From the NCBI GenBank assembly GCA_003599295.1, contig QZJK01000001.1, positions 88 to 64,087 on the forward strand: a stretch of DNA of 64,000 nucleotides, read 5' to 3'. Below are positions 23,119 through 57,085 of the stretch, piece by piece; the stretch's first letter is position 1; every line of letters begins with the position of its first letter. Position numbers and translations under genes: made by a program. Origin of the DNA: Candidatus Parcubacteria bacterium (lineage in GTDB: Bacteria > Patescibacteriota > Minisyncoccia > Phycocordibacterales > UBA2100). Under the pieces are notes generated by a model. That model saw only the letters and a list, made by a program, of their open reading frames with translations, had not been told where the DNA came from and did not search any database.

Positions 23119-24891
23119 TTAACTTCTTGCAATAACGATCCGAGGCGCTTTGCCGTTTTCGGAGCGAATGAACGTCATTGCATCCTTCGTGAGAGAACCC
23201 AGTGCGAGTTTCGTCGAAGAAGGCACGCGAAGCGGGATAGAAGCAGCAACTGATTTCGCGAACTGCATCGGTGCTTCCATGACCGGCGCGGGAACGCGGG
23301 CTTTGATGCCAGCGAACATCGGCAGGTAGTAGACTGCGAGATACGAGGCCGCAAGAGCGAACGCGAGGATCGAGAAGTAATAGGCCATTGTTCCAACGGT
23401 GCCGAGATCAAGGCCTGTGTATGGGATCTGTGTCAACGTTATCTGCGGAGGATATACCGGAGGCGGAGGGATGACCTGGGTTTGCGTCTGGCAGGTCGCG
23501 CTTTGGCCCTGCGCGTTGTACACGGTCATCGTGTACATCACGTAGCCGTCCGTGTACACCGTGCGAGAACCGGAAGTTGGGACAGAACCGATCAGGGGCG
23601 AAATGTATGCACTCGTCGCGTTGTTCGAGCCCCACGTGAGAGTCGCTTGCTGATTGTAGTTGTACGAGCCGTACCCATACTGCGGCGTGAGCGTTATCCA
23701 GCAGCTCGGCGGATTTTGGAATGGAATGGTGCTTACGGTGACAGTTGTTTGACACTGCGCGCTTTGACCCTGTGCATTGTAGACGGTCAGCGTGTATGTC
23801 GTTGTGTGCAACGGATACACAGTTTGGTTCCCATTCACGCCCACGTTGCCGAAATTCGTAAGGGTTGCGGACACCGCGTTCGAAGACGACCAGGTGAGGT
23901 ACGAAGAGCCGCCTGTTTGAATAGAAGACGGATTTGCGGAAATCGTGCACGAGGGCGTTTGCGCCTGTTGGACCGTAATCGTGGTCTGGCAGTTCGCGGT
24001 GCCGCCGGGGCCGGTCACGGTAAGTGTGAACGTCGTGTTCGAGGTGAGGTTGTGTTCCGCGTGCGAATCGTTGAGGGCGACAGTGCCGTGGCCCGAGAGC
24101 GACGCAGAGGTCGCGTTGCTGGAGCTCCATGTGAGTGTGGAGGAACCACCGTGCTGCACGTTGTTCGGATTCGCAGAAATAGTGCACAACGGAGCATTCG
24201 GAACCTCCTGAACGGTGACGAACGTCTGGCAGTTCGCGGTGCCGCCGGGGCCAGTTACCGTCATCGTGTACGTGGTCGTTACCGACGGCGAGACGGACGT
24301 CGAACCTGAAAGCGCGACATTACCGATGCCTTGATTGATGGTTGCCGACGTGGCGTTGGTCGAACTCCACGTGAGCGTAGATGAGCCGCCGTGCTGGATC
24401 ACGTTGGGATTTGCAGAAATGTTACACGCGGGAACAGGATTCTCCACAACGACGGTCGTCTTGCAAGTTGCCGTGCCGCCGGAACCCTTCACGGTGAGAG
24501 TGTAGGTCGTGGTAAGTGTCGGAACTACGGTAAAGGTGCCGCTTGTGCCGACAGAGCCGATGCTCGAGAGTGTCGCGGATGAAGCGTTCTTCGACGTCCA
24601 TGTCAGCACGGAGAAATCACCGGACTGAATTTTATCCGGATTTGCGGAAATATCGCACGACGGTTTCGGCTTCTTTTTTTCGCGGTCATTGTCGCGGTCG
24701 TTATCGCGACCACCTCCGCCGCCGCAACAACCACCGGAAGAACCGTCGCTCCATGCCGACGCAACTGAAGCAACAGAAACGCCGCCCTCATTTGAGAACG
24801 TCATTGAGAATGCAACGGTGCCCAGTGCAATCACGAAAACGGTCGTTGCGACCGACACTATCACTTTTCCAGAAACCGATTTGAAATTCAT
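23119..24891 (-). CDS. Surface protein paralog 1 (590 aa): signal peptide, five or more Cys-bounded Ig-like repeats, C-terminal IPYTG-TM-conserved tail
   Basis: N-terminal hydrophobic signal; repeated ~70-aa modules C.ISANP..IQ.GGSS.LTWSS.NATSA...TTTYTLTV.G.GGTA.CQTT; C-terminus QIPYTGLDLGTVG followed by a TM helix and a tail ending APRIVIARS. Confidence 0.8.
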   Translation of the reverse strand: MNFKSVSGKVIVSVATTVFVIALGTVAFSMTFSNEGGVSVASVASAWSDGSSGGCCGGGGGRDNDRDNDREKKKPKPSCDISANPDKIQSGDFSVLTWTSKNASSATLSSIGSVGTSGTFTVVPTLTTTYTLTVKGSGGTATCKTTVVVENPVPACNISANPNVIQHGGSSTLTWSSTNATSATINQGIGNVALSGSTSVSPSVTTTYTMTVTGPGGTANCQTFVTVQEVPNAPLCTISANPNNVQHGGSSTLTWSSSNATSASLSGHGTVALNDSHAEHNLTSNTTFTLTVTGPGGTANCQTTITVQQAQTPSCTISANPSSIQTGGSSYLTWSSSNAVSATLTNFGNVGVNGNQTVYPLHTTTYTLTVYNAQGQSAQCQTTVTVSTIPFQNPPSCWITLTPQYGYGSYNYNQQATLTWGSNNATSAYISPLIGSVPTSGSRTVYTDGYVMYTMTVYNAQGQSATCQTQTQVIPPPPVYPPQITLTQIPYTGLDLGTVGTMAYYFSILAFALAASYLAVYYLPMFAGIKARVPAPVMEAPMQFAKSVAASIPLRVPSSTKLALGSLTKDAMTFIRSENGKAPRIVIARS

Positions 24892-25426: not shown

Positions 25427-26572
25427 CTAATTTCGATTGTCTGAATTTTGCGACTCAGAGCGGAAAATCGCCGGCACTTCTACGCTGTTTTCCGTCTTCG
25501 CGAAGACTTCCGAAGAAGTCATCGGTGCACGAGAAGGTGCACGGAACGACAAACGGCTCGGAAAGTAGTAGACGACCATATAACCCGCACCGAGCGCAAA
25601 GAGTGCGATAGCGAACCAGTACAGCGTATTCCCTACCGTCCCGAAATCGAATCCTGTGTACGGAATCTGGTCGAGCGAGACGTTGGTCGAAGGCACCGGA
25701 GGAGGATACGTTGGGTACGTCGGGCCCGGATAGTACGATGTGCCGGTGACTGAAACATATGCGCTGCATGTCTGCGTGCGGCCTTGATTGTCATTCACGG
25801 TCAACGTGTAGTTGCGTGAGCTCTGCGGATAGACGGTGCGCGAGCCGCTCAAAGAAACGCTTCCGATGCCATCAGAGAGCCAAGCGCTCGTCGCTCCGGA
25901 GGATGTCCATGTGAGGTTAGTCGTTCCGCCCGGCGGAACCGTTTGCGGATTCGCCGTGACGGTGCAGTAAAGATTGCCCGGCTGGTAGTACGAAGATGTC
26001 TGACAGGTCGCCGACTGGCCCTGCGAATTGTAGACCGTCATCGTGTAGATCTGATTTTGCGTCGGGTATACGGTTTGCGAGCCGGACGTCGCGGCGGAAC
26101 CGATCGAAGAAATATTAGCGGAATTTGCATTCGTCGAGTCCCACGAAAGTGTCGCTGGCTGATTGTATTGGTACTGGCCGCTGTACTGCGGCGCAAGCGT
26201 TATCCAACAACTCGGCGCGCCACTCGTACCGGTAACAGTAACGGTCGTCTGACACTGACCACTCTGCCCTTCTGTGTTGTAGACAGTAAGAACGTATGTG
26301 TTCGTCGAGGAAGGATAGAATGTCTGCGAACCGGAGAGCGCGACCGAACCGACATTCGTGAGATTGGCCGAACTGGCGTTCGTCGAATTCCACGACACCA
26401 CGACCGGCGTATAGCTGGTTCCCGAGTAAGCAATGTTCGACGGATTTGCACTAATGGTGCACGTTGGCGCGACCTGCGCAGATGCAAATGAGATAGAGAG
26501 AGCGAATATCGCGATGCTTGCGAGGACGCTAATCGCAATGATACGTACTCTGTCGGATGCGTGTGTATTCAT
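25427..26572 (-). CDS. Surface protein paralog 2 (~381 aa): signal peptide, three Cys-bounded repeats, IPYTG-TM-tail
   Basis: Start at ATG encoding MNTHASDRVRIIAISVLASIAIFALSISFASA (the track's M at 26605 is a TTG); modules CTISANPSNIAY..., CWITLAPQYSGQYQYN..., CTVTANPQTV...; C-terminus LDQIPYTGFDFGTVG plus TM. Confidence 0.75.
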   Translation of the reverse strand: MNTHASDRVRIIAISVLASIAIFALSISFASAQVAPTCTISANPSNIAYSGTSYTPVVVSWNSTNASSANLTNVGSVALSGSQTFYPSSTNTYVLTVYNTEGQSGQCQTTVTVTGTSGAPSCWITLAPQYSGQYQYNQPATLSWDSTNANSANISSIGSAATSGSQTVYPTQNQIYTMTVYNSQGQSATCQTSSYYQPGNLYCTVTANPQTVPPGGTTNLTWTSSGATSAWLSDGIGSVSLSGSRTVYPQSSRNYTLTVNDNQGRTQTCSAYVSVTGTSYYPGPTYPTYPPPVPSTNVSLDQIPYTGFDFGTVGNTLYWFAIALFALGAGYMVVYYFPSRLSFRAPSRAPMTSSEVFAKTENSVEVPAIFRSESQNSDNRN

Positions 26573-26710: not shown

Positions 26711-27877
26711 TTAGCTGCGTGTTATGACGATGCGCGGTGCTTCCCCGTTCAAAGAACGCGCGAGCGTCATTGAGTCCGAAAGCATTGAGCCGGTCTTTGC
26801 GCGAAAGTCCTTCGCCGGCTTCGCAACAATAGTTGAAGCCGCGGAACGAGCGAATTGAATCGGTGCTTCCATCACACGCGTCGGAACCATCTGCTTCACG
26901 CGGAAGAGCGCGGGAATGTAGTAGACGGCAAGGTAGGCCATGGCGACGGCGAAGAGTGTGATACCAAGCCAGTAGAATGTGTTCCCTATCGGACCCCCGT
27001 CAAAGCCTGTGTACGGTATCTGGTTCAGCGACACGTACGGAGCCGAGTACGAGGGATAGTAATTCGGGTACGTGGGCGGATAGTAATAGTACGAAGGAGG
27101 AAGGACTGCGGTCGCAGTGTACTGCGGCGTCGCCGTGTACACAGGCGCGGGATTGTTCGTGATGTTCGTGTACGTGTTGAAGCTGTCGTTGATGCTGTAG
27201 TCGTAGGTGTTGTAGCTTCCTGAAATGCTATTGTCGATGGTCGTGTTCGATATCGGCTGCGAGGTGCCGACGGGATAGCTCGTGAAGAGCGGGGCTGTGT
27301 ACGTCGAAGACATAGAGTGTCCGACAGGTGCCGTGTAGTAAGACGGGGCCGCAATTCTAACCGGTGCCGCTACGCCGACGGGCTTAGAAACAGCTATGGG
27401 CGCAGAGTAGAGCGAGGGCGCTGTGTACGTCGGCACGTACGAATACCCGACATCATAGACGTCATACGCAGTGGCAGTGTAGTAATCCGTGTAGCCGAGG
27501 TAATCAGAGTTGCTACCGTAATACCCGAGCGTATCCGCGTAGTAACCAAGAGTATCCGAATAATTGTAGTACCCCAGCGTATCAGCACCGTAATAACCGA
27601 GCGAATCACTGAACGAATCCCAACCAGAACCGCCGTAGTATCCAAGTGTATCGCTGCCAGACCAATCGAAGTATCCAATTGAATCAGACGAGCCACTGAA
27701 AGAGCCGAGTGTATCCCACGAACCTCCGAAATATCCCAACGTGTCTGAACTACCTCCGTAGTACCCGAGAGTGTCCGCACGAACCGTGGATACAGGCAGG
27801 AGCAAGGTAGCAACAAAAATCGCAACGAAAACGCCCACGACAGTAAGTGTGAGATCGCCAGTGATTGTGTTTTTCAT
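26711..27877 (-). CDS. Surface protein paralog 3 (388 aa): Tyr/Gly/Ser/Thr-rich, (S/A)DTLGYYGG tandem repeats, IPYTG-TM-conserved tail
   Basis: N-terminal TM/signal; about 12 DTLGYY-type repeats; C-terminus LNQIPYTGFDGGPIG plus TM; tail VMEAPIQFARS...APRIVITRS closely matches paralog 1. Confidence 0.75.
   Translation of the reverse strand: MKNTITGDLTLTVVGVFVAIFVATLLLPVSTVRADTLGYYGGSSDTLGYFGGSWDTLGSFSGSSDSIGYFDWSGSDTLGYYGGSGWDSFSDSLGYYGADTLGYYNYSDTLGYYADTLGYYGSNSDYLGYTDYYTATAYDVYDVGYSYVPTYTAPSLYSAPIAVSKPVGVAAPVRIAAPSYYTAPVGHSMSSTYTAPLFTSYPVGTSQPISNTTIDNSISGSYNTYDYSINDSFNTYTNITNNPAPVYTATPQYTATAVLPPSYYYYPPTYPNYYPSYSAPYVSLNQIPYTGFDGGPIGNTFYWLGITLFAVAMAYLAVYYIPALFRVKQMVPTRVMEAPIQFARSAASTIVAKPAKDFRAKTGSMLSDSMTLARSLNGEAPRIVITRS
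27470..27770 (-). repeat. Imperfect tandem coding repeats (about 24-30 bp) encoding (S/A)DTLGY(Y/F)GG in paralog 3
   Basis: Repeated gtatccgagcgtatc / gtagtaaccaagagtatc-like units on the plus strand. Confidence 0.7.
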
Positions 27878-27995: not shown

Positions 27996-28691
27996 TCAGG
28001 TGCTGTATGACCTCTTGAGGCACGCGACGGCATCGTCGAGTTTGCCGCCCGCCTCAAGCCGTGCACGGACTCCCGGACCGAGGTCGATTCGGTTACCAGA
28101 GGAGTCGGTCACGGACCAGAAGTCGGTTCCCTCCCTGAGCCCGAGAGACACGAGACATGCGCTGACCCGCGGATACGTCGCATCGCCTCTCGGAACCGAT
28201 GGAGGAGCCGGCAGCGCGACATAGGGTGCCGTCGGCAGAGTCGGGGGAACCACGTACACCACCGGCGGTGGTGCAGGTGGGGTCACGACGGTCGGCGGAA
28301 GCGGCGGGGCAACCGCGTGCTGCTTCGTCGTTTCGTCGTCGTTGCCAAATCCAGCAGTAGCATTCGCATTCGCATTCGCGACTGCCCTGTCCCTTTCCGC
28401 CTGCACCTTCGCGATTTGGACACGCGAAGTTTGGCAGACGGCGTCGCAGTTGAATGTCCCGCCGTTGTAGAGGAAGGCGATACCGCCCGCCGCGAACAAC
28501 AGAACGAGAACAAAGGCGATGACGCCTCCGACCGACCACGATGAATCGTGAACAGCGCTAGTCCGCCGCCGAGAACGATCGCCGAATACTGGTTCTTCCC
28601 CTTCGTAGGTGTGGGTGTGAACCCACTCGACGGGCTGACGCACACGGCGTGCAGTAATCGGGCCAGTTTCGGCCGCTGATGTATCAGTCAT
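27996..28691 (-). CDS. Hypothetical single-pass membrane protein, Pro-rich
   Basis: Start MTDTSAAE with AAGGGAG SD; TM helix VIAFVLVLLFAAGGIAFLY; PPLPPTVVTPPAPPPVVYVVPPTLP stretch; followed by GC hairpin 27950-27983. Confidence 0.5.
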   Translation of the reverse strand: MTDTSAAETGPITARRVRQPVEWVHTHTYEGEEPVFGDRSRRRTSAVHDSSWSVGGVIAFVLVLLFAAGGIAFLYNGGTFNCDAVCQTSRVQIAKVQAERDRAVANANANATAGFGNDDETTKQHAVAPPLPPTVVTPPAPPPVVYVVPPTLPTAPYVALPAPPSVPRGDATYPRVSACLVSLGLREGTDFWSVTDSSGNRIDLGPGVRARLEAGGKLDDAVACLKRSYST

Positions 28692-28888
28692 GGCAATTCT
28701 CCCTTGGATTTGCCGTTGAAGACAAGGAACACGCCCCACCGGGAGCGTATCCCTGGTGAGAACTTAATGTTAATTATATCACTCAAAGACGAATTGTCAA
28801 TGTATAAAAATGGCTCAAAACAAGGACAAAAAAACAACGGCGGAGAGAACTGGTCTCCCCGCCGCCTTAGATTTCTGTTGCGCAGTCC

Positions 28889-29662
28889 TCAGTGGACTTG
28901 ACGAGTCTCACCACTTTCGCCTGCAGCCGTCTTCGCGGTGGGTGATGTCGGCGAAGAGGCTTCTTCATGGTCGATGGTCAGGCCGCCCACGGTCCCGGCA
29001 GGAATTTCCGAACGCACCCGCTTGGCGATGCGCGGGGTCGGAGTCGTCTCGATCCACTTGCCGTTCTCGTCTTGCACCACGAAGGTGAAAACGATGCCGA
29101 CCCGGTATTCCGTGACCTCCTCGGGAAGGCCCGTTCTCGACGGATGAAGCTTCGGTTCGTGGTCCGCGGGATATCCACCGGGAGGCGGAATGACACGAGA
29201 CTGCAAGGCAGCTGCATCACGTTGATCGAGAAAGGCCATGAGCTTCCGCTTCTTCAGACGCTGGATGATGCCGACGTCGAAGAGTGCGTAGAGCACGAGG
29301 CCGATGAGCAGTGCAACTGCATTCGGCGTGTTGAAGATCCTGCCGGCGTCGACGACGACTTCTCCGGAGAAATACGAGATGAAGAAGATCGTCGCGGTGC
29401 CGAGGACCGAGAGCAACGCAAGCACCGACCCGGTCGCATCGAGCCGGTATAACGCCTTGTTTGTCTGGTGCATCAGCCCCGAGAGAATGTTCGAGACCAC
29501 CCACACGACGAACATAGGGATGCCGAGCGAAATAAACGAGAGTTCGTATCCGTTCGGCAAGGTGACGTGATCCCAGCCCAAGAGGTAGACAACCGGGACT
29601 ATGACTGCCGTCGCAAGCGCAGTCGCGAATGCGGCGAGCGTGATGATGATTTCAAGAATCAA
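28889..29662 (-). CDS. Hypothetical polytopic membrane protein (about 4 TM)
   Basis: Likely TTG start with GAGGAGG SD; multiple hydrophobic helices; hydrophilic C-terminal half. Confidence 0.5.
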   Translation of the reverse strand: MILEIIITLAAFATALATAVIVPVVYLLGWDHVTLPNGYELSFISLGIPMFVVWVVSNILSGLMHQTNKALYRLDATGSVLALLSVLGTATIFFISYFSGEVVVDAGRIFNTPNAVALLIGLVLYALFDVGIIQRLKKRKLMAFLDQRDAAALQSRVIPPPGGYPADHEPKLHPSRTGLPEEVTEYRVGIVFTFVVQDENGKWIETTPTPRIAKRVRSEIPAGTVGGLTIDHEEASSPTSPTAKTAAGESGETRQVH

Positions 29663-29859
29663 GGCTAGTCCTCCTCATATTGCTCCATACGGAGCGGTGA
29701 ATCACCTACCCGCGAACGGGTAGGACGATGGTAGCGGCCGGAGCCGCAAATGGATATGAAGAACCATCGCTTAGCTCCTTTCTGGCCGCCTTGGCCTTTG
29801 GTGTGAAGTAACGCAGCCCCAGGCAGTCTGGGGAGCCGGCGAGATTGTACCTCAAAATG

Positions 29860-30135
29860 TCATTCTGTCAACTTTTCCCTCTCTATTTTCCGCTTCAGTT
29901 GCTCCAAAGAATCTGCAGCTTCGAGTCCTTTTTCTTGTATCTCGCTAATCGCATGTTCTTCTCGGATGGCATCGAAAAGAGTATTGAATAAAAGCGCGCG
30001 TCGCTCCTCTTCCGGAAGCCGCGGATAGTAATGCTCCACGTATTCGCGCACCTCGCCTTCCGAGCCGTTCTCGGTCAATTCCACAAGTTTCTCGCGGAAT
30101 GCGTCCAACTCTTCTTTTGTCATTACGGTGACCAT
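29860..30135 (-). CDS. Hypothetical small acidic helical protein
   Basis: Start 2 nt after the stop of the 566-aa gene (translational coupling); EEERRALLFNTLFDAIREEH. Confidence 0.4.
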   Translation of the reverse strand: MVTVMTKEELDAFREKLVELTENGSEGEVREYVEHYYPRLPEEERRALLFNTLFDAIREEHAISEIQEKGLEAADSLEQLKRKIEREKLTE

Positions 30136-30137
30136 AG

Positions 30138-31838
30138 TTATGCGTGAACGGGCCTGCCGAGTGCGGCGCTTGCCCCTTTGTTCCAATTTTGACCGAGCAG
30201 TATCTCAAAGACCCACGCCCAAAATCCTGTACCTGCATGTTCTTTTCTCTCGGTCTCGGCCATGCCGCCAAGTATACGGTCTTGTGCGGCGATATCGTTT
30301 TGCGGCCAGTCTCGCTCTCGCATGCGCGCACGCACCCGCTCCTCAACTGATTTCGGCGAGAAACGCTCCTTGCTCAACTTCTGCGCTTCCTCGTAAGAAT
30401 GCGGACCTCCTTCGCCGGACGCCTTTTGATTCTTGTTTGAAAGCACCTCTCGCGCGATACGCGTTCTCATTTCGGGATTGGAAATTGTCGGTTGGAGGAA
30501 TTCGGCGATGTCCTGCAGCGTTCCATCGATGCGGTTCATGACCCAGGAGCGCGGGTCGCGTACATCAAGCCGCGTTGGCATGGCTGATTCCATTTCACGC
30601 ATTGCCATCAGTGCAGCATTTCTCGAAGACCCGACAAAAGGGATTTTAGTAATTCGTTCAGCTCGATCAATCGCACGCCTGAACGTTCCAGCTCGTTCGT
30701 GAATATATGCAGTCAGTTGGTCTTTGCTGGCTTGCCGCTCATTCGCATTCGAGACGTTTACCATAACGGTCAGATCCTTTCGCGAAAGACCCAGCCGATC
30801 ACTAATCGCCTTGATGTCTTCATCGGCGCGTTTATATCTCAATGTGCCTCGATCTTTTTCCATGTCTGCCATCGCGCCCCACATCTTCATGATGTCGTCC
30901 GGCTTCTCCATCGCTTGATGCAATATTGCCTGATGCACCATCTCTGTCGCCCTATCGCCTTCGTGCGTAAGCAAGTTCAAAAAATCTTTATTCCGACGTG
31001 CTAAAAGCTCCACCTCCTGGGGCGTCATGCGCTTATTGATATCTTCGGCGAATCTCAAGCGCAGAGAATATTCATGCGCCGCATACGTCATGAAATCCAT
31101 GTCCTCTTTCGTCGGAGCGCCGTTGATATACCGCTCGAGAGCTCCGTCGGCATCTTTTGAATTGATGGCTCGCAGCGCTTCTCCGAAAAGCTGCGAATCG
31201 CGACTGTCCGCGAGAATGTCTCGGATGGGCTTTATCGGAATTCCCGCATACCGTCGGTCCCGTATCTCATAGGCACCCGGCCGCGGCCCGCCCGACATTA
31301 TGCGTCCCGCGTCGAGCCGTCCATCGCGAGAATGTTCCGGTGTAGGCGGCTCCGGCGATTGCACGCTGGGACCATCGCCCTGCCCATCGGCGGCGGCCGC
31401 AATGTATGCGCGATTAAATCGGAGCGGATTATTTTGCTGTTCGGGACTTGCTGGCGACGCAAGCGGTGTTGTTGGGGTAGGTTCTGTTGTCGTGGATGTT
31501 TGGTCATTTCCTCGCAGAGGTGAAGCTGGTGTTCCGTCAGCATCTAACATCCTTAATCTATATCTAACGGGTCCGCGCGGAGCGCCCCCGAGCATTTGAT
31601 GCGCGACCTCATCCTCTTCCGGCGTTCCGGGAACAAGTTGACGCTCGCTTCCGTCGGGATTGAACAGCACGACACCTTCGTCGCGTGATTGATATTCAAC
31701 TTCTTGAGGTGTTTCCGGCGATGCTTCGCCAGACTCTTCTTGTTGAACAGGGATCCGATTGCCGGGTGCGCTTGCTTCCTCGTCTTCTTCTCTGATGCGT
31801 ACGGTCTGTGAACGATTCAAGCCATCCTCCAAATTCAT
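30138..31838 (-). CDS. Hypothetical protein (566 aa) with about 200-aa disordered acidic/Pro-rich N-terminus and helical C-terminal region
   Basis: Long ORF, no TM or signal peptide, no recognisable catalytic motifs. Confidence 0.6.
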   Translation of the reverse strand: MNLEDGLNRSQTVRIREEDEEASAPGNRIPVQQEESGEASPETPQEVEYQSRDEGVVLFNPDGSERQLVPGTPEEDEVAHQMLGGAPRGPVRYRLRMLDADGTPASPLRGNDQTSTTTEPTPTTPLASPASPEQQNNPLRFNRAYIAAAADGQGDGPSVQSPEPPTPEHSRDGRLDAGRIMSGGPRPGAYEIRDRRYAGIPIKPIRDILADSRDSQLFGEALRAINSKDADGALERYINGAPTKEDMDFMTYAAHEYSLRLRFAEDINKRMTPQEVELLARRNKDFLNLLTHEGDRATEMVHQAILHQAMEKPDDIMKMWGAMADMEKDRGTLRYKRADEDIKAISDRLGLSRKDLTVMVNVSNANERQASKDQLTAYIHERAGTFRRAIDRAERITKIPFVGSSRNAALMAMREMESAMPTRLDVRDPRSWVMNRIDGTLQDIAEFLQPTISNPEMRTRIAREVLSNKNQKASGEGGPHSYEEAQKLSKERFSPKSVEERVRARMRERDWPQNDIAAQDRILGGMAETERKEHAGTGFWAWVFEILLGQNWNKGASAALGRPVHA

Positions 31839-31852
31839 AGCAAAATGGTAGC

Positions 31853-31894
31853 ATGAAAAAGAAATCGGAGCGGGTGGACTAGGTCCTCCCGCTC
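31853..31894 (-). terminator. Intrinsic terminator/attenuator between the 269-aa and 566-aa genes
   Basis: GGAGCGGG-aggacctagtcca-CCCGCTCC followed by GATTTCTTTTTC on the minus strand. Confidence 0.5.
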
Positions 31895-31922
31895 CGTTGC
31901 CGCAGCATAGCGCTTTGGCGAA

Positions 31923-32732
31923 TCAAACCGCGTGTTGAGGCGTTGATGACGCCTCAGCAGGTTTCGCGGCACGTAGATCGGACCGAAGTTTCTTGTAATT
32001 GTCCTCCAGCCGATCGAAGAACGAGCCGTAGTTCTTGGCGTCGACGCGACGCAAGACATCCCTCTGGGCAACGAGCCGCGTCAGCTTCCCGTTGACTTCG
32101 CGAATCAGGAGCACTGCGCCGATCGGCATCTTCCAGAGAACGTAGGATGACGCCGGGCAACCAAGCAGAGGGATATTGCGACCCACTGCTTTTGCTCCCA
32201 GTCGCTCCGCTTCGACCTTGCCCATGCTGAAAGTCGGATCGGTGAGAGCGTGCCGCAGTTCGGCTTCGTTCTCGGCCATCGCAACCCTGACTGAGGCATT
32301 GTCGAAGGAATACGAACCGTGGGTGACGAGTTCGCCATGCTTCTGAATTTCCAGCCGGTCGTTCGCCGTACTGCCGTTCACCGCCATGAGGCCCGTACGG
32401 ACAAGCACGTAGTAGGCTTGCTCGTCGCGGTGCGACACAATGAACGATTTCTTCAGGTCACCTTCTTCCACCTGAATGATAGACCCCGAGACGATCTTTT
32501 CGCCGCGCGTACCGTCGGCGGCAAATTTCGGGAAGTCCTCCAGTCCAGGCGGAATGATACGCGCCCATTTCACGGGCTTCTCGTTCTTGGCCCGCAACTG
32601 GGGACCAACGACAAGGGAAGGAACAACCCCCGCCCGATTCCCATAAGGATCGGGTACTTCGCTGGCACGAATGCCGTTGAAGAGAGCGTCGTTACGCCCG
32701 AGGAAAAAGTGGAAGTTCGTCTGTTCAACCAT
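31923..32732 (-). CDS. Hypothetical protein (269 aa)
   Basis: ORF with GGAG 8 nt upstream and a consensus promoter further upstream; no recognisable domain. Confidence 0.55.
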   Translation of the reverse strand: MVEQTNFHFFLGRNDALFNGIRASEVPDPYGNRAGVVPSLVVGPQLRAKNEKPVKWARIIPPGLEDFPKFAADGTRGEKIVSGSIIQVEEGDLKKSFIVSHRDEQAYYVLVRTGLMAVNGSTANDRLEIQKHGELVTHGSYSFDNASVRVAMAENEAELRHALTDPTFSMGKVEAERLGAKAVGRNIPLLGCPASSYVLWKMPIGAVLLIREVNGKLTRLVAQRDVLRRVDAKNYGSFFDRLEDNYKKLRSDLRAAKPAEASSTPQHAV

Positions 32733-32785
32733 TTTTCAGCTCCAGGTTGGGAGATAAGCCTCTGTGAGGCCAGAGCTACGGTATG

Positions 32786-32813
32786 CTCTAAGGAAATTAT
32801 ATCATGCAAAAGG
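32786..32813 (-). promoter_or_regulatory. Consensus sigma70 promoter (TTGACA-N16-TATAAT) for the 269-aa gene / putative operon
   Basis: Minus strand reads TTGACAATCTCCTTTTGCATGATATAAT. Confidence 0.6.
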
Positions 32814-32840
32814 AGATTGTCAAATTAGGCCTACGTTGAG

Positions 32841-32881
32841 CCAAAAAATCGTTCGGCGGCAGACACGCGCGTCTGCCGCCG
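32841..32881 (-). terminator. Strong intrinsic terminator after the membrane protein gene 32898-33431
   Basis: Perfect 11-bp stem CGGCGGCAGAC-acgcgc-GTCTGCCGCCG followed by TTTTTT on the minus strand. Confidence 0.7.
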
Positions 32882-32897
32882 ATTGAGAAACGCGCCG

Positions 32898-33431
32898 TTA
32901 TGCGCCCAAGCGACGCTCCGTCCGCTCTCCTCTCGGGGCCGATTTCAGCAGCTCCATGATGAGTCCGTAGAAGATGCGGTTCGAGAGGAGTATCGCGAGC
33001 CACGTGTGCGCCAGGATCACCCATTCGACAATGCCATACCGTATCGGGCTTCCCGCCGGCTCGTCGCGGAAGTAGACGAGCGCGACGAGCCAAACGACGA
33101 TGGCAAGAATGGCGCCGAAGTACGGGAGCTGCCCGGTCCTGATCTGCGCACGCGCCTGTGGAGCATCGATCGAGCCTCGTCCTTCCATCTGCCCTGTCAG
33201 CTCGCGGCCCTCGAGAAGCATGTAGAACGGGAACAGGCCGAACCAGATCGCGGCGATGATCCACTTGGTGCTGTCCGCGAAGCCGCTCCATCCGAGGAGC
33301 GGGACGGCGACCAGGATGATGAGCGCGTAGCCGGGTGCGTTCCAGCGTTCGGCCCATATGAACCTCGGCCTCCCATCTGGACCCGGTTGCCACAGTTTCC
33401 AACTCATGTCTTCCTCCTGCGTGACCGGCAA
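32898..33431 (-). CDS. Hypothetical membrane protein (177 aa, about 4 TM)
   Basis: Hydrophobic helices (ALIILVAVPLLGW, IIAAIWFGLFPFYML, AILAIVVWLVALVYF, WVILAHTWLAILL). Confidence 0.5.
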   Translation of the reverse strand: MPVTQEEDMSWKLWQPGPDGRPRFIWAERWNAPGYALIILVAVPLLGWSGFADSTKWIIAAIWFGLFPFYMLLEGRELTGQMEGRGSIDAPQARAQIRTGQLPYFGAILAIVVWLVALVYFRDEPAGSPIRYGIVEWVILAHTWLAILLSNRIFYGLIMELLKSAPRGERTERRLGA

Positions 33432-33564
33432 AATTGCCGAATAATCCTGAACCCGAAACAGCTCGGGACTAAATGCAGTAATGCATTAAAAAGTGGCGCG
33501 TGTCAAAGTGAGATAAAAGACGCCCCCGCGGCACTTAAGGTGCGCCGCGGGGTAATTGTGTTCG

Positions 33565-33987
33565 TCAGACCTCGACGTTCCGCCGCCGTGGAAACAGGAA
33601 GTGGCGGCAGAAGAGCCAGAAGTGCCGATCCCAAGTATCGTGGCCGTGGCGGCAGACCCGGACACGGAGTCTCCTCCGTGCCCATCCGACGATGAGCAAC
33701 GGAAGACCGATCTCGCCGATAACCATCCACCGCTCCACGTTGAAGAAGCGAAGGAACACCTCGACCTTGCCGCCGACGACGGGAATGTCCCGGAGAAGGC
33801 GGAGAATCTCAAGGTTGAAGTCGAACCAGCCGAGAAGCACTTCCTCGCCGCCCGTGAAGAAAATGGCGGCAAGGATCGCGATGGCAATGAGCCACCGGAG
33901 CCTGACGATAATTGTCCAAATCACCGGACCCGTTTCGTCAGCCACAATTGCAGTTCCAGTCTTCAGGTAGTGCCGAATGCGCTGCAT
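33565..33987 (-). CDS. Hypothetical membrane protein
   Basis: Start MQRIRHY with GAGGAG SD; TM helices; basic C-terminus. Confidence 0.45.
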   Translation of the reverse strand: MQRIRHYLKTGTAIVADETGPVIWTIIVRLRWLIAIAILAAIFFTGGEEVLLGWFDFNLEILRLLRDIPVVGGKVEVFLRFFNVERWMVIGEIGLPLLIVGWARRRLRVRVCRHGHDTWDRHFWLFCRHFLFPRRRNVEV

Positions 33988-34004
33988 CTTTTCTTCTCCT
34001 CGAT

Positions 34005-34346
34005 TCAGCGAAGTGGAAAGCAGACGTCGCCCCACGTGTAGTTGAGGCAACGGCCGACTGGGTGCGGGTCAATGACGATGATTTGTCCGCGGGGAATGAG
34101 ATGCGGTACGAGGACGCCGCGGGGCGGCGCGAACGGCGCCGCATGCCGAGGCGCGTGATGAGCACGAGACACACCACAACGGTTCAACGCTGCAAGGTTC
34201 CCGATTCGCCCCCGCCACTCCTCGTAGCAGAGCCGCACAAGAGGCGGCCAGCAGCCTTCGCCGAGAGCGCCGCCGCAATACGGGGACTGAGCCTGCGCCG
34301 CCGAAGAAACGACGAGCGCAAGTAGAATTGAAAGGAACATTCTCAT
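34005..34346 (-). CDS. Hypothetical small secreted Cys-rich protein
   Basis: Signal peptide MRMFLSILLALVVSSAAQAQ; six Cys. Confidence 0.45.
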   Translation of the reverse strand: MRMFLSILLALVVSSAAQAQSPYCGGALGEGCWPPLVRLCYEEWRGRIGNLAALNRCGVSRAHHAPRHAAPFAPPRGVLVPHLIPRGQIIVIDPHPVGRCLNYTWGDVCFPLR

Positions 34347-34453: not shown

Positions 34454-35125
34454 TTAAAGAACCCCTACGAACTCCGCGTCCAGGATCCAGCGGCTGTCTT
34501 TTGAGGTAAGCGTGTCGCAGGTGACGAGCGTAAGACGCGTGCCGTTCTTCGTCGAGAGGTCGATTATCTCGTCGTTCGCGTTTCCGCGGCGAACGGACTT
34601 CACGATATAAAGATACGACTTGCCATCTCCCATGATGGTTATCATGTCGCCGGGTGATAGCTCTGGTACGCGATTGAATGCACGGTACATCTGATTACGC
34701 ACGACCGGAAGATTTGACGTGTGCGCAAATATTAAGACATTGCCTTTCTCACCGGCTTTCGCCGAATCCACGTACCGTACCGGGCCGCTCTTTAGATATC
34801 CATCGAGCGTCTCAATGTCGCGCGTCGCGGGATTTGAGACGGGAAGATCAAGGTCGATCGAAGGAATGACGATGCGCTCAGGAAGTGCCGTAGGCACTGC
34901 CGGCTCATTTTCTGCGATGGTGGATTCGCTTCCGAGCTCCGGGAGATTTGAAAGCGCGACGCGCTCATCGCGAGATGGCGACCCGTCAATGTAGTACGGA
35001 ACGAATCCGACTGAATCGGCCGCAGAGAGGGTGAGGAAGAACATCACAATAGACGCAGCGAAAAAAACCCGCTTCGGAGGTTTCGCGTGATTTCGGATGT
35101 TTGAATTGTTGAAATTCGGCTCCAT
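34454..35125 (-). CDS. Sortase family transpeptidase
   Basis: N-terminal TM anchor; catalytic triad context NVLIFAHTS (His), TRLTLVTCD (Cys, TLXTC), SRWILDAEF (Arg). Confidence 0.85.
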   Translation of the reverse strand: MEPNFNNSNIRNHAKPPKRVFFAASIVMFFLTLSAADSVGFVPYYIDGSPSRDERVALSNLPELGSESTIAENEPAVPTALPERIVIPSIDLDLPVSNPATRDIETLDGYLKSGPVRYVDSAKAGEKGNVLIFAHTSNLPVVRNQMYRAFNRVPELSPGDMITIMGDGKSYLYIVKSVRRGNANDEIIDLSTKNGTRLTLVTCDTLTSKDSRWILDAEFVGVL

Positions 35126-35166: not shown

Positions 35167-35209
35167 ATGCACTGTCTCCGGAGTCCAAAAGATGGTTTTC
35201 GAGCGCTCC

Positions 35210-35238
35210 TTGACAAGTGCCTTATATCCATGTATCGT
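35210..35238 (+). promoter_or_regulatory. Promoter TTGACA-N17-TATCGT for the CARDB-domain protein, 12 nt before the ATG
   Basis: CTTGACAAGTGCCTTATATCCATGTATCGTGCCGGAATTCTTATG; divergent from the sortase promoter. Confidence 0.45.
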
Positions 35239-35250
35239 GCCGGAATTCTT

Positions 35251-36324
35251 ATGGCAGAAAACACACAGGCGCCAGGACGGCCGTTTACCATCCCTCCCCC
35301 GCCTGAAGACACACGCACCAGTCTCATCTCGAACGTTCTCGCGGTCGCGGGGTTCATCGTCGTTATTATCGTCGTCATTTGGGGGCTCGTGAACCTCGCG
35401 AGCATCTCGCGCGGATGGTTCGGTTCCTTCTTCGGAGGCTCTTCGCAGGAAGAGACCATCGAGATAGCGGCTCCGGAAAACGCGGATTCAGGTGAAGTAT
35501 TCCGCATCACGTGGGAACACGAACCGTCTTCGACGGGTTCATATGCGTTCCTCTATCAGTGCGTAAGCGGTCTAGAGTTCCGCACGCCCACCCCGATGGG
35601 AACGCTCGGAGCTATCCCCTGCGGAGCTGCGTACACCGTTCCTTCCGACAGCGCGCTCACACTGACCGGTCTGCTTTCGGGAACATCTTCGGCTTCGGTC
35701 CCGCTTTCGATTATTTTCTTGCCGAGTGCGACAGGAACACGAGCGGAAGGAAGCGCTTCCATGACCATCAACAGAGGGGCTGCCATTCCTACGCCGACTC
35801 CTACTCCGACGCCCACGCCGACTCCTACTCCGACGCCCACGCCGACTCCTCAACCGACCCCAACCCCGGCACCGCGTCCTGCGACTCCGGCTGACCTTTC
35901 CGTCTACATTATGTCAGTGATACCCGATGCGGCAGGAATAACGACCGTCACGTTCTCGATTGCGAATAACGGCGGCACATCAAGCGGCACGTATTACTTC
36001 ACCGCCGAGCTCCCGACGACCCAAGCGTACACATATGCGTCGCCCGCGCAGGCATCGCTCGCGCCTGGCTCTTCAATCGTCAACACACTTCGCTTCACGC
36101 AGACGCGCCAAGGCGGCGGTACGTTCTCCGTCTCCGTTGATCCTTCGAACATCGTCCGCGAATCGAACGAGATAAACAACTACGCAAGCCAATTCATCAA
36201 CACGAATGTATACAATCCGTACCCGTACAATTACAACAATCAAAACCCATACAACAACCAATACCCGTACCCGAATCAGTACCAGCAGTATCCGTACTCG
36301 CAGTACTACCCGTACGCGTACTAA
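35251..36324 (+). CDS. Membrane-anchored cell-surface protein with (TP)n linker and CARDB-like domain; Tyr/Asn/Pro-rich C-terminus
   Basis: N-terminal TM ISNVLAVAGFIVVIIVVIWGL; TPTPTPTPTPTPT linker; CARDB-like features (LSVYIMSV..., VSVDPSNIVRESNEINN). Confidence 0.7.
   Translation: MAENTQAPGRPFTIPPPPEDTRTSLISNVLAVAGFIVVIIVVIWGLVNLASISRGWFGSFFGGSSQEETIEIAAPENADSGEVFRITWEHEPSSTGSYAFLYQCVSGLEFRTPTPMGTLGAIPCGAAYTVPSDSALTLTGLLSGTSSASVPLSIIFLPSATGTRAEGSASMTINRGAAIPTPTPTPTPTPTPTPTPTPTPQPTPTPAPRPATPADLSVYIMSVIPDAAGITTVTFSIANNGGTSSGTYYFTAELPTTQAYTYASPAQASLAPGSSIVNTLRFTQTRQGGGTFSVSVDPSNIVRESNEINNYASQFINTNVYNPYPYNYNNQNPYNNQYPYPNQYQQYPYSQYYPYAY
35791..35880 (+). repeat. Tandem repeat encoding the Thr-Pro linker
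   Basis: acgccgactcctactccgacgccc unit repeated about 3 times. Confidence 0.8.
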
Positions 36325-36336
36325 AACCGGCTCCTT

Positions 36337-37416
36337 CTAATCGAGGGCTGCCAGTTCATCAGAGACAGGCTGTTTCTTTCTCTCTTCAACGCGGCGAACT
36401 TCATCAATGCCGTGGAAGTATCCTACGCTTAAAGTTCGCTGAAATTCTTGGTCGGGCATAGGGCCCGCTCCCCAAAACACACCTGCCGGAACATACTTGC
36501 CGTTGAGATAGGCATACACCGTCGAACCGGACATACCTTTTGCATGAAGCGGAGATTCATCCTCGGGTTTCAATGCGAGCTTGCCCAGATCGTTTAGATC
36601 TGCCTCACTCTCTCCGGGCGGCAAGATCAACATGAAGGAGTTCTCCATTTGGATAACTTCCTCGGCATTATTCGTCAAACGTCTGGCAAGACCGGGAGAT
36701 ATTTTTATCGCAACGCCGGGATATGTTTTGTGGCCGCGATCGTGTGCCGCAGTCGAAGCCGTATCATCTACATCGACGCCAACCACGGCGACGAATTGGG
36801 CGTGGATGTCGTTATTTGTCATTGAGATATCGTCCTCGACAATACCTGCGCTATCAGAAGTCTCCGCTGTTCCTGACACGTCGACCATATCGATGTCTAT
36901 GTTCTTCACGGGATACGTTATGACTCCTCGCTCAGTTCCATATGTGGCGTGCGCTGCAGTGAGTACCGTTCTCCCATCCCGCCAATACGTACCGTTCCCG
37001 CGACCGTACGGAAAACGCATGCTGTGCACATACTTCTTGTGGAGCTCGGTCGTGTCGTAGGAAGTGTCTTCGAGATGCTCTTGCAAGAGCGGCGCTTCGA
37101 TAGCCCGAAGGACCGTCATGATGGGGTGCTTTCCCTTGCCTTCGAGCGCCTCCAGAACTTCCGGCTCTCGCAGTCTTTTTTGAATTGCTGCAATGGCCGC
37201 ATCAAGCGCCTTTTGTTTTTCGCTCGATTCCTTCTCGAATGAGCCCGCCAGGTCATCTATAAGATCCTGCGGCAATACTCGAACGGCTGCGAACGCTCCG
37301 ACACCGAACAGAAGCGATCTTCGGGTCAGCGAAGGCTCTTCTTGTTTTCGACGTCCCGAAGCCCACCGTGCCCGCTTGTCAGGAACAAAGTCGGGTGATG
37401 GGCCCCTTTCCTTCAT
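36337..37416 (-). CDS. Tat-signal secreted trypsin-like (chymotrypsin-fold) peptidase homolog
   Basis: Twin-arginine motif TRRSLLFGVGAFAAV; TVLTAAHA (His motif) and KGMSGSTV (Ser motif, GDSGG-like); moderate confidence. Confidence 0.5.
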   Translation of the reverse strand: MKERGPSPDFVPDKRARWASGRRKQEEPSLTRRSLLFGVGAFAAVRVLPQDLIDDLAGSFEKESSEKQKALDAAIAAIQKRLREPEVLEALEGKGKHPIMTVLRAIEAPLLQEHLEDTSYDTTELHKKYVHSMRFPYGRGNGTYWRDGRTVLTAAHATYGTERGVITYPVKNIDIDMVDVSGTAETSDSAGIVEDDISMTNNDIHAQFVAVVGVDVDDTASTAAHDRGHKTYPGVAIKISPGLARRLTNNAEEVIQMENSFMLILPPGESEADLNDLGKLALKPEDESPLHAKGMSGSTVYAYLNGKYVPAGVFWGAGPMPDQEFQRTLSVGYFHGIDEVRRVEERKKQPVSDELAALD

Positions 37417-56407: not shown

Positions 56408-57085
56408 ATGGAAGAGCTTTACCATTGCCTTAACCGCGGGGTCGACAAGCGAACGATCTTCACCGACAACAGGGACCGTGCTCGCTTCGTGCACGATCTC
56501 TATGAATTCAACGATGATAGACCAGCGTTCAACGCGGGGCGAGGGTTCAGCGGCAAGCCAGACCCCATGATTGACTTCGTAAGTCAATCATCGGAGCGGG
56601 GGGTGGCACTTGTCGACATACATGCGTGGTGTCTCATGGGAAATCACTACCATCTCTTACTTTCTGAAGCGAAAGAGGGCGGCGTTTCTCTCTTCCTTCG
56701 AAAGCTGAACGTTGGATATGCACGATATTTCAACGACAGACATCGGCGCCAAGGCACACTATTCCAGGGGCGAACAAAGAAGATCCATATCAGTTCCGAC
56801 GCGCATTTTCTCCACATACTGCACTATATTCATCTCAACCCGCTTGATTTTCTCAAGGGCTCTGAAGACTGGCGCTCGTTACGCGTCAAAAGCGCAAAAC
56901 AGGCCCTTAGCCATTTGATGCAATATCGTTGGAGCAGTTATCTTGATTACTGCGGCAGAAAAAATTTTCCTTCCATTCTGACGACCGGACTTTTCCGCGA
57001 TGTGTTCGGAAATTACGGAAGTGTCCTTTCCTCATACCTCAAGGATATTGAGCTTTCCGATGTCAAACCGTACCTGCTGGAATGA
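56408..57085 (+). mobile_element. tnpA: IS200/IS605-family HuH Y1 transposase (REP-associated tyrosine transposase-like)
   Basis: YHCLNRGVDKRTIF N-terminus; HuH motif GNHYHLLL; YIHLNPL motif; MQYRWSSYLDY candidate catalytic Tyr region; flanked by inverted REP-like hairpins; the unit is about 725 bp. Confidence 0.8.
56567..56591 (+). repeat. REP-like palindrome, copy 2, in-frame inside the RAYT ORF (encodes MIDFVSQS)
   Basis: ATGATTGAC-TTCGTAA-GTCAATCAT. Confidence 0.85.

Follow-up and report, generated by a model that had tools for sequence, protein, structure and literature searches.

The question raised by this locus is whether the pentapeptide IPYTG, which stands shortly before the C-terminal transmembrane (TM) helix of three predicted surface proteins, is the signal by which a nearby sortase recognises them. 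Sortase and IPYTG proteins are encoded in a stretch of 64,000 nucleotides (the window) from a Candidatus Parcubacteria bacterium (contig QZJK01000001.1) of the candidate phyla radiation (CPR). Little is understood of the cell envelope of these bacteria, which are ultrasmall and for the most part episymbionts, and sortases have been reported in more than half of the CPR genomes (PMC6744442). A search for 'IPYTG' in a full-text library gave two unrelated papers and none linking it to sortases or CPR bacteria, and no account of the motif, the C-terminal domain or any substrate of a CPR sortase was found in the searchable literature or in the family libraries; a recent preprint on CPR pili deals with a chaperone-usher-like system and not with a sortase system. 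The locus provides a concrete and testable enzyme-signal pair, consisting of one sortase and one invariant 24-residue motif. From the analyses described here it is considered probable, though well short of assured, that the C-terminal module around IPYTG is a lineage-specific signal of the LPXTG type and that it forms a dedicated sortase-substrate system, in which the neighbouring sortase would cleave between Thr and Gly.

Only one sortase was seen in the locus, and its open reading frame (ORF) is listed in Table 1. The product scores 65.4 bits against the Pfam family Sortase (PF04203, cut-off 26.6) and 31.5 bits against TIGR01076 (sortase_fam), the latter under the cut-off of 39.35. The catalytic residues are those named in a preliminary description of this sequence, which had called the protein a clear sortase, namely His135 in FAHT (nt 34721-34723), Cys203 in LVTCD (nt 34517-34519) and Arg212 in SRWILDAEF (nt 34490-34492), and all three are invariant across 61 homologues. 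The membrane anchor is N-terminal (residues ~19-42), ends in a conserved LSAADSVGFVPYYIDG and is followed by a poorly conserved linker and by the catalytic domain from about residue 82. The TM/juxtamembrane segment is largely invariant, and the anchor is the only hydrophobic segment, so that no C-terminal anchor is present. The AlphaFold (AF2) model, with a predicted local distance difference test (pLDDT) score of 71, was compared with solved structures using Foldseek and matched sortases of all classes with E values of about 1e-8; 123 PDB chains were retrieved at E<=1e-3 and every match shown was a sortase, in keeping with the closed beta-barrel of the sortase fold. The foremost structural neighbours are class E (Thermobifida, Streptomyces) and class A enzymes with 19-24% identity (~22-24% to the SrtE structures of T. 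fusca and S. coelicolor), and a PDB search by sequence gave a single weak match, 2kw8, at E = 1e-3. Among the NCBIfam class models matched (C-F and SrtD), every score lies below the cut-off. The best is that for class E (NF033747, 37 bits, cut-off 160), and the scores for classes C, D and F are far under theirs (class C, NF033745: 24.8 bits, cut-off 160). Close homologues with a taxon name are labelled Kaiserbacteria and are 57-88% identical. Judged by its sequence and predicted fold, the ORF encodes a genuine but divergent CPR sortase with predicted transpeptidase activity, which is best left unclassified since the Pfam family, the fold and the triad are all in place and yet no NCBIfam class cut-off is reached.

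In order to find candidate substrates, the window was scanned in six frames for xPxTG, LPxT[GASN] and LAxTG motifs with a hydrophobic stretch behind them. Exactly three matches were obtained, all of them IPYTG. They share the minus strand with the sortase gene, from which the motifs lie 7.4, 8.8 and 11.0 kb away, roughly the distance of 7-10 kb given in the preliminary description. Each of the three proteins (388, 392 and 590 aa) carries a hydrophobic N-terminal signal and a single C-terminal TM helix, and 8-9 residues separate IPYTG from the helix in all three. The motif is of the xPxTG form and lies, about 9 residues before the helix, in a segment predicted to be extended. The three ectodomains differ and the C-terminal modules align with one another. 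Apart from a weak Ig-like Pfam match, the proteins received no Pfam or NCBIfam assignment. Their tails comprise 43-63 aa, and two of them end in a conserved box with the sequence PRIVI. The 392-aa protein has a 43-aa tail of a separate class (..VPAIFRSESQNSDNRN) without the PRIVI box, shared with its orthologues P0125, L005 (6632-8023) and L006 (3797-5146), and the closest representative of the 590-aa protein is P0121.

A profile of the three C-termini was searched exhaustively against 1.84 billion representatives, which yielded a family of 563 clusters (50% identity) with E<=1e-3, of which 221 reach E<=1e-10. The family is confined to Kaiserbacteria/Paceibacterota, and in the inspected matches the module occupies the extreme C-terminus. 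By comparison, a word-indexed protein search with a single 125-aa C-terminal module found nothing, and with a 30-sequence profile it found only 37 short fragments, all named 'hypothetical protein', as are all family members for which source names are given. With the signature of the module, proteins exposed on the surface of Kaiserbacteria-type organisms may be flagged in metagenomes; these currently go under that name, without a Pfam or NCBIfam model. Exact IPYTG is present in at least 144 of the 150 best representatives, and the clear variants, LPYTG and ITFTG, keep Thr-Gly. The three matches in the window are not due to chance, because they are paralogues of a family with an essentially invariant IPYTG.

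A consensus was computed over 264 non-redundant modules. It reads P-Y-V-[SA]-L(95%)-[ST]-Q(95%)-I(94%)-P(96%)-Y(99%)-T-G up to the motif and F-D(95%)-[FL]-G(94%)-[PT]-x-G(92%)-N after it, followed by a conserved aromatic TM helix (..YW..LL.FA.AGAYL.VYY), by [RK]-G-G and by a linker of variable length. Conservation spans 9 residues on either side of the pentapeptide, giving ~24 conserved residues around the motif. In the main form of the module, a cytoplasmic extension of 40-100 aa ends in the conserved box T-x-D-[SA]-M-x4-S-x2-G-x-A-P-R-I-V-I-x-R-x-COOH; this box is found in ~80% of the members, and 99% of the boxed members end exactly one residue past the invariant Arg. Among full-length representatives of the family, an N-terminal hydrophobic signal is present in 95/102 and exactly two hydrophobic segments in 91/102. 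In an AlphaFold prediction for the last 114 aa of the 388-aa protein, the motif is extended, the TM helix is modelled with confidence (pLDDT 90-98), and a disordered linker leads to a beta-hairpin at the C-terminus (pLDDT 81-85). In this model, the combination of TM helix, variable disordered linker and conserved C-terminal peptide is typical of the architecture of docking motifs. The remark in the preliminary description that cleavage would leave an unusually long conserved cytoplasmic remnant has proved correct, and the situation is odder still, with the box fixed to the C-terminus and both the TM helix and the 9-residue flanks conserved.

A minority of the family lacks the extension. Short tails of 2-30 aa past the helix, several of them basic, are found in ~20/110 modules of the related loci, for example ..GAYALV-RRNRIFANVRGE and ..AAYLLAY-RLRLVG, and by their sequences the basic ones correspond to the canonical tripartite cell-wall sorting signal. 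The LPYTG member of locus L073, which keeps the YVSLTQ flank, passes the LPXTG_anchor model TIGR01167 with 17.4 bits (cut-off 15.9).

Three further observations were made on the tails. A second, weaker mini-motif, [AVT]Px[ILM]F, is present in 60/245 family tails compared with ~12 expected from shuffles, and occurs in the three tails of the window as APIQF, VPAIF and APMQF (nt ~26830-26890, ~25470-25500 and ~23240-23300). The tail class without PRIVI (the 392-aa protein, P0125, L005 and L006) ends in ..[VI]PAIF[RH]S[ED]S... The tail box ..APRIVI[TA]RS (26714-26788 and 23122-23196) resembles the first beta-strand of the sortase, ..LPERIVIPSI (34850-34880); the likeness is probably a coincidence. 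In principle, a beta-sheet could be extended by a C-terminal strand that mimics one of the sortase.

For the analysis of gene linkage, the pattern L[ST]QIPYTG[FL] was searched in one genome per species (185,579 species), with 279 matches including 256 confirmed relatives. The 79 loci retained for comparison provided ~1.3 Mb of related sequence, the six-frame ORFs of which were searched with hidden Markov models (HMMs). All 79 stem from metagenome-assembled genomes (MAGs) of the CPR/Patescibacteria type, mostly labelled Kaiserbacteria, Paceibacterota or Parcubacteria. Many of the MAGs bearing the locus (L023-L083) have been deposited as 'uncultured Candidatus Saccharibacteria bacterium' (e.g. 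CAYNRJ010000002.1); these labels are probably pipeline mislabels, because the same gyrB-sortase...thrS-dnaE order is found in them.

Within the window and the ~1.3 Mb of related loci, IPYTG was counted 101 times, and MPYTG, TPYTG and LPYTG each had a single occurrence. Other xPxTG, LPxTx or LAxTG motifs with a TM segment behind them do not recur in this material, singletons being in the wrong frame or at an N-terminus, and the LAXTG substrates that are a trait of class E are among those that do not recur. The preliminary description had set two findings against its own proposal, separate canonical LPXTG substrates and IPYTG proteins without a sortase; the former do not recur in the sequence searched, and no IPYTG locus has been shown to lack a sortase. 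A sortase of the same subfamily (290-370 bits) is encoded on the same strand 0.4-7.9 kb upstream of IPYTG in 45/79 loci. Where the full 10-kb upstream flank is available, an upstream same-strand sortase is present in 34 of 38 loci, and it is never found downstream. In L010 the sortase gene lies ~15 kb upstream on the same contig, and the remaining loci without a sortase are mostly cut by contig ends. Even the low-scoring paralogues P0282, P0284 and P0279 are all encoded at the same thrS-dnaE locus. Most genomes have one IPYTG gene at the locus, some relatives have 2-4, and the window has three in tandem.

Essentially every locus shows the collinear order pheS-pheT-gyrB-CARDB(-)-sortase(+)-[variable]-IPYTG(+)-thrS(-)-dnaE(-). 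Outside this common layout, the arrangement of IPYTG and sortase genes is tight or operon-like in four loci. In L049 the end of a gene for an IPYTG protein of 613 aa and the start codon of the sortase gene that follows it are 16 bp apart, in L038 the two reading frames (stop-to-stop ORFs) are separated by 18 bp, in L063 the sortase gene, two small ORFs and two IPYTG genes are separated by gaps of 3-56 bp, and in L073 the LPYTG gene starts within 430 bp after the sortase gene.

In the reading favoured here, the three IPYTG proteins would be exported by the Sec pathway as type I surface proteins, and their C-terminal module would serve as the sorting signal. After export, the conserved TM helix would keep the precursor in the membrane, and the N-terminally anchored sortase would recognise the extended juxtamembrane segment L-[ST]-Q-I-P-Y-T-G-F-D and cut it between Thr and Gly. 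Conservation of the substrate TM helix together with that of the TM/juxtamembrane LSAADSVGFVPYYIDG segment of the sortase suggests that recognition takes place within or at the membrane. The ectodomain would then be passed to an amine acceptor, most simply a peptidoglycan precursor as in other monoderms, because the window contains a gene for an SLT lytic transglycosylase and the related locus L001 a YkuD gene. The fragment G-FDFGPxGN-TM-tail would remain in the membrane. It may further be proposed that the family was derived from an ordinary LPXTG-type signal, of which the short-tailed members would be persisting forms, and that the main orthologue gained a flexible cytoplasmic linker ending in the beta-hairpin box. 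Most likely this box would dock on a cytoplasmic partner, either before cleavage, for targeting or retention, or after it, for the fate of the remnant or for signalling. The original idea of IPYTG as a sortase signal is strengthened by the topology, the extended motif, the linkage in 34/38 loci, the tightly arranged loci and the short-tailed members, and it is weakened in that the linkage is confounded.

Several observations weigh against this reading. As the whole region is collinear, an inherited gene order can explain the linkage. The gyrB, thrS and dnaE genes are as tightly 'linked' as the sortase gene, thrS is nearer to the IPYTG genes than the sortase gene is, and CARDB is nearer to the sortase gene. 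The spacer between sortase and IPYTG genes varies from 0.4 to ~15 kb without conserved content, and in L080 the IPYTG block has been moved beside FBA-L25-SLT-RF1, at another place relative to pheST, with no sortase within 10 kb. The motif census covers the window and the ~1.3 Mb of related loci, and the sortase may have substrates encoded elsewhere in the genome. The proteins of the window do not end in the short positively charged tail that is a trait of LPXTG anchors, and the two modules searched, those of the 388- and 590-aa proteins, gave no match to the LPXTG anchor HMMs even at E = 10 (Pfam/NCBIfam models, TIGR01167/PF00746). Finally, conservation extends far beyond the pentapeptide, including Tyr at the 'X' position (99%), Gln at position -1 (95%), FDxGxxGN, the TM helix and the box. 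To our knowledge, conserved flanks, a conserved TM helix and a box at a fixed C-terminus are neither needed for nor typical of known sortase signals, and conservation of such extent would fit a stable, uncleaved membrane protein.

These points lead to the main alternative, in which the IPYTG proteins would stay in the membrane for good as type I proteins that are never cleaved, and the sortase would act on proteins encoded elsewhere in the genome. Juxtamembrane segment, aromatic TM helix and hairpin box would then be one structural and docking unit coupling an Ig-like or low-complexity ectodomain to a cytoplasmic partner, the likeness to xPxTG would be vestigial or coincidental, and the proximity of the sortase would merely reflect the collinear gene order of the clade. 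Conservation of the TM helix and of a box that ends one residue past Arg in 99% of its bearers, the prediction of that box as a folded hairpin, the region-wide collinearity that accounts equally well for the linkage, the variable spacer content, the rearranged locus L080 and the failure of the modules with anchor HMMs are all in its favour. It is at odds with the short-tailed members, several of them basic and one passing TIGR01167, with the IPYTG genes that abut the sortase gene outside the usual layout (L049, L038, L063 and L073), with variant motifs that keep Thr-Gly at the canonical distance from the helix, and with the failure to find any other candidate substrate in ~1.3 Mb. Taken together, the alternative appears unlikely, though it has to be reckoned with.

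The conserved cytoplasmic end clashes with the textbook view of the part behind the pentapeptide as a disposable stop-transfer signal. A possible way of accommodating both ends of the module, put forward here tentatively and considered unlikely, is that it is a two-sided device, with a sortase signal on the outside and a docking peptide on the inside, by which display of the ectodomain at the surface would be tied to an event in the cytoplasm. Before cleavage, the tail might bring the precursor to a particular site of export or division; alternatively, the released remnant might report on or regulate the processing of surface proteins, as an elaborated form of C-peptide sensing. A precedent for a functional remnant comes from Streptococcus gordonii, where, as summarised in the paper cited, the piece left after the sortase A cut of LPXTG adhesins (remainder of the motif, TM and tail) is sensed by the histidine kinase SGO_1180 (PMC11326707). 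A function of this kind could explain why the remnant is conserved in the IPYTG family. In S. gordonii, a short remnant is left and sensing takes place within the membrane, whereas the IPYTG remnant would have a cytoplasmic C-terminal hairpin on a long linker. The spacer ORFs between sortase and IPYTG genes were clustered in the 45 loci in search of a conserved cytoplasmic partner. No universal gene was found among them, the commonest being that of a secreted VG[YRH]-repeat protein in 14/45 loci, and neither a kinase nor any other partner for the tail was found among the genes of the locus. If the tail is functional, anchoring of surface proteins would be coupled across the membrane, and a box that links anchoring to an intracellular process would raise the interest of the finding. 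With the two-sided device, if real, a conserved cytoplasmic effector end would become known for the first time in a sorting signal, and the CPR would have their first defined sortase system.

The secreted repeat proteins just mentioned deserve a separate remark. Their genes lie directly 3' of the sortase gene in the 14/45 loci (e.g. L049, 5627-6301; L019, 2975-3850), and the proteins consist of hexapeptide repeats of the type [PAS]V[GND][VI]G[YRH] (..GYPVNVGYPVNVGRPVDIG..); no such protein is encoded in the window.

Comparison with known systems bears on the favoured reading in several ways. With the LPXTG signal and its housekeeping sortase (class A in Firmicutes, class E in Actinobacteria), the system shares the signal peptide, an extended xPxTG, a single C-terminal helix and a membrane-anchored His/Cys/Arg enzyme, which is best matched by class E both among the NCBIfam models and in structure. 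The basic residues that follow the helix of LPXTG signals on the cytoplasmic side are shared by some short-tailed members of the family, and one member passes TIGR01167. In contrast to LPXTG, the IPYTG module has a fixed Ile, an invariant Tyr at 'X', ~24 conserved residues and a conserved TM sequence, and its main form adds the extension of 40-100 aa with the conserved box. Genes for substrates of housekeeping sortases are usually dispersed, whereas every IPYTG gene seen so far shares one locus with the sortase gene, and no LAXTG motif is involved.

Dedicated loci are known for class B (SrtB with NPQTN), for class C (pilin sortases with IPxTG, YPxTG or VPxTG pilins) and for class D (LPNTA). 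The pattern is the same as here, a specialised sortase beside a few substrates with a deviant, class-specific pentapeptide, and pilin signals beginning with Ile are known. In contrast to these loci, the IPYTG system has no pilin motifs and very few Lys, its sortase lacks the C-terminal anchor of class C, and the long conserved tail has no counterpart. The resemblance to pilin loci raises the possibility of a sortase-assembled pilus, in which a class C-like sortase would polymerise tandem IPYTG pilins by way of Lys-Thr isopeptide bonds. Signals of the form IPxTG are typical of pilins, for example IPQTG of pneumococcal RrgB, and the three tandem IPYTG genes of the window, the 2-4 genes of some relatives and the Ig-like repeat ectodomains would suit a pilus. 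On the other side, the locus contains just one IPYTG gene in most genomes, YPK is present in 3/233 family proteins and the E-box in 0/233, Lys makes up 0.6% of the ectodomains, and the sortase has neither a C-terminal TM segment nor an adequate class C score (24.8 against 160), its structural neighbours being led by class E and class A enzymes. The pilus hypothesis was rejected on the motif counts and is regarded as very improbable.

C-terminal sorting domains of the Haft type are modules that are each paired with a dedicated processing enzyme. Like the IPYTG module, PEP-CTERM/exosortase, PGF-CTERM/archaeosortase and GlyGly-CTERM/rhombosortase domains are lineage-restricted, C-terminal and tripartite, stand on unrelated ectodomains and co-occur with one candidate processing enzyme; they differ in that their signals end in a short basic tail and are served by polytopic membrane enzymes, whereas the IPYTG module combines a sortase-type motif with a cytoplasmic box. 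That the module is a signal for another enzyme of this kind (PEP-CTERM/exosortase- or GlyGly-CTERM/rhombosortase-like), with the sortase as a bystander, is scarcely credible. Its extended motif and conserved TM helix are nearer to Haft-type domains than to the loosely conserved LPXTG; against such an enzyme speak an xPxTG form that fits a sortase, the absence of exosortase, archaeosortase or rhomboid-like genes among the window ORFs scanned, and a locus whose only universally conserved genes are those of the sortase and the CARDB protein.

The features of the window are compiled in Table 1. Its gene content is that of the core chromosome of a CPR bacterium of the Kaiserbacteria (rpoD, dnaG, rpoC, rpoB, smc, dnaE, thrS, gyrB, pheST, EF-Ts, S2 and RF1). 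The preliminary description had placed the sortase and IPYTG genes in the same island; a compositional island around the sortase gene is ruled out because the GC level is 0.52-0.59 across the whole window and the region is collinear throughout the clade. The stretch from sortase to IPYTG genes is instead a variable segment within a collinear core region common to the clade. Several of the ORFs in it encode membrane proteins, none gave a Pfam or NCBIfam match, and the set is not conserved, with homologues in only 0-13 of ~80 related loci.

Table 1. Features of the window discussed in the text
Feature	Position (nt)	Strand	Description
Sortase	34454..35125	-	223 aa; Pfam PF04203, catalytic triad, Foldseek fold
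Variable stretch between sortase and IPYTG genes	27996..34050	-	Seven co-oriented ORFs, 108-566 aa
IPYTG protein, 388 aa	26711..27877	-	Signal peptide, Tyr/Ser/Thr/Pro-rich ectodomain
388-aa protein, IPYTG	27019-27005		Residues 287-291
388-aa protein, TM helix	26980-26897
388-aa protein, terminal box	26788-26714		SMLSDSMTLARSLNGEAPRIVITRS
IPYTG protein, 392 aa	25427..26605	-	Signal peptide, Ig-like two-Cys repeats
392-aa protein, IPYTG	25666-25652		Residues 314-318
392-aa protein, TM helix	25627-25559
IPYTG protein, 590 aa	23119..24891	-	Signal peptide, ~five Ig-like two-Cys repeats
590-aa protein, IPYTG	23427-23413		Residues 489-493
590-aa protein, TM helix	23388-23311
590-aa protein, terminal box	23196-23122		SLTKDAMTFIRSENGKAPRIVIARS
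IPYTG motif segment as peptide			LSQIPYTGFDFG; PYVSLSQIPYTGFDFGPVGN
CARDB-domain membrane protein	35167..36324 (likely start Met 35251)	+	Pfam CARDB, 37.6 bits

The most constant neighbour of the sortase gene is not an IPYTG gene but that of the CARDB protein, a type II membrane protein which is divergently transcribed from the sortase gene and paired with it in 42 related loci. It consists of a conserved N-terminal TM segment (..AGFI..I..WG), a two-Cys domain, a (PT)n linker and the CARDB domain, and carries no sorting signal. Its end is rich in Tyr, Gln, Asn and Pro, with ..YYPYAY in the window and nearly always ..YPY[AVT]Y-COOH in the orthologues.

Between gyrB and the CARDB gene lies an ORF of 359 aa (36337-37416, minus strand) with homologues at the same position in L032, L052, L055 and L072. 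It gave no Pfam match and may encode a divergent S1-type serine protease, because it contains the chymotrypsin-like motifs ..VLTAAHAT.. and ..AKGMSGSTVY...

A giant ORF of 2259 aa (57112-63891, minus strand) has a Bact_surface_Ig-like domain near its C-terminus and an end rich in Pro, Thr and Glu. As neither a hydrophobic segment nor a sorting motif was detected in it, the sortase apparently does not act on this large surface protein. Its gene is adjoined by an ORF (56408-57085, plus strand) with a weak match to an IS200-like Y1 transposase (24.9 bits, cut-off 23 bits).

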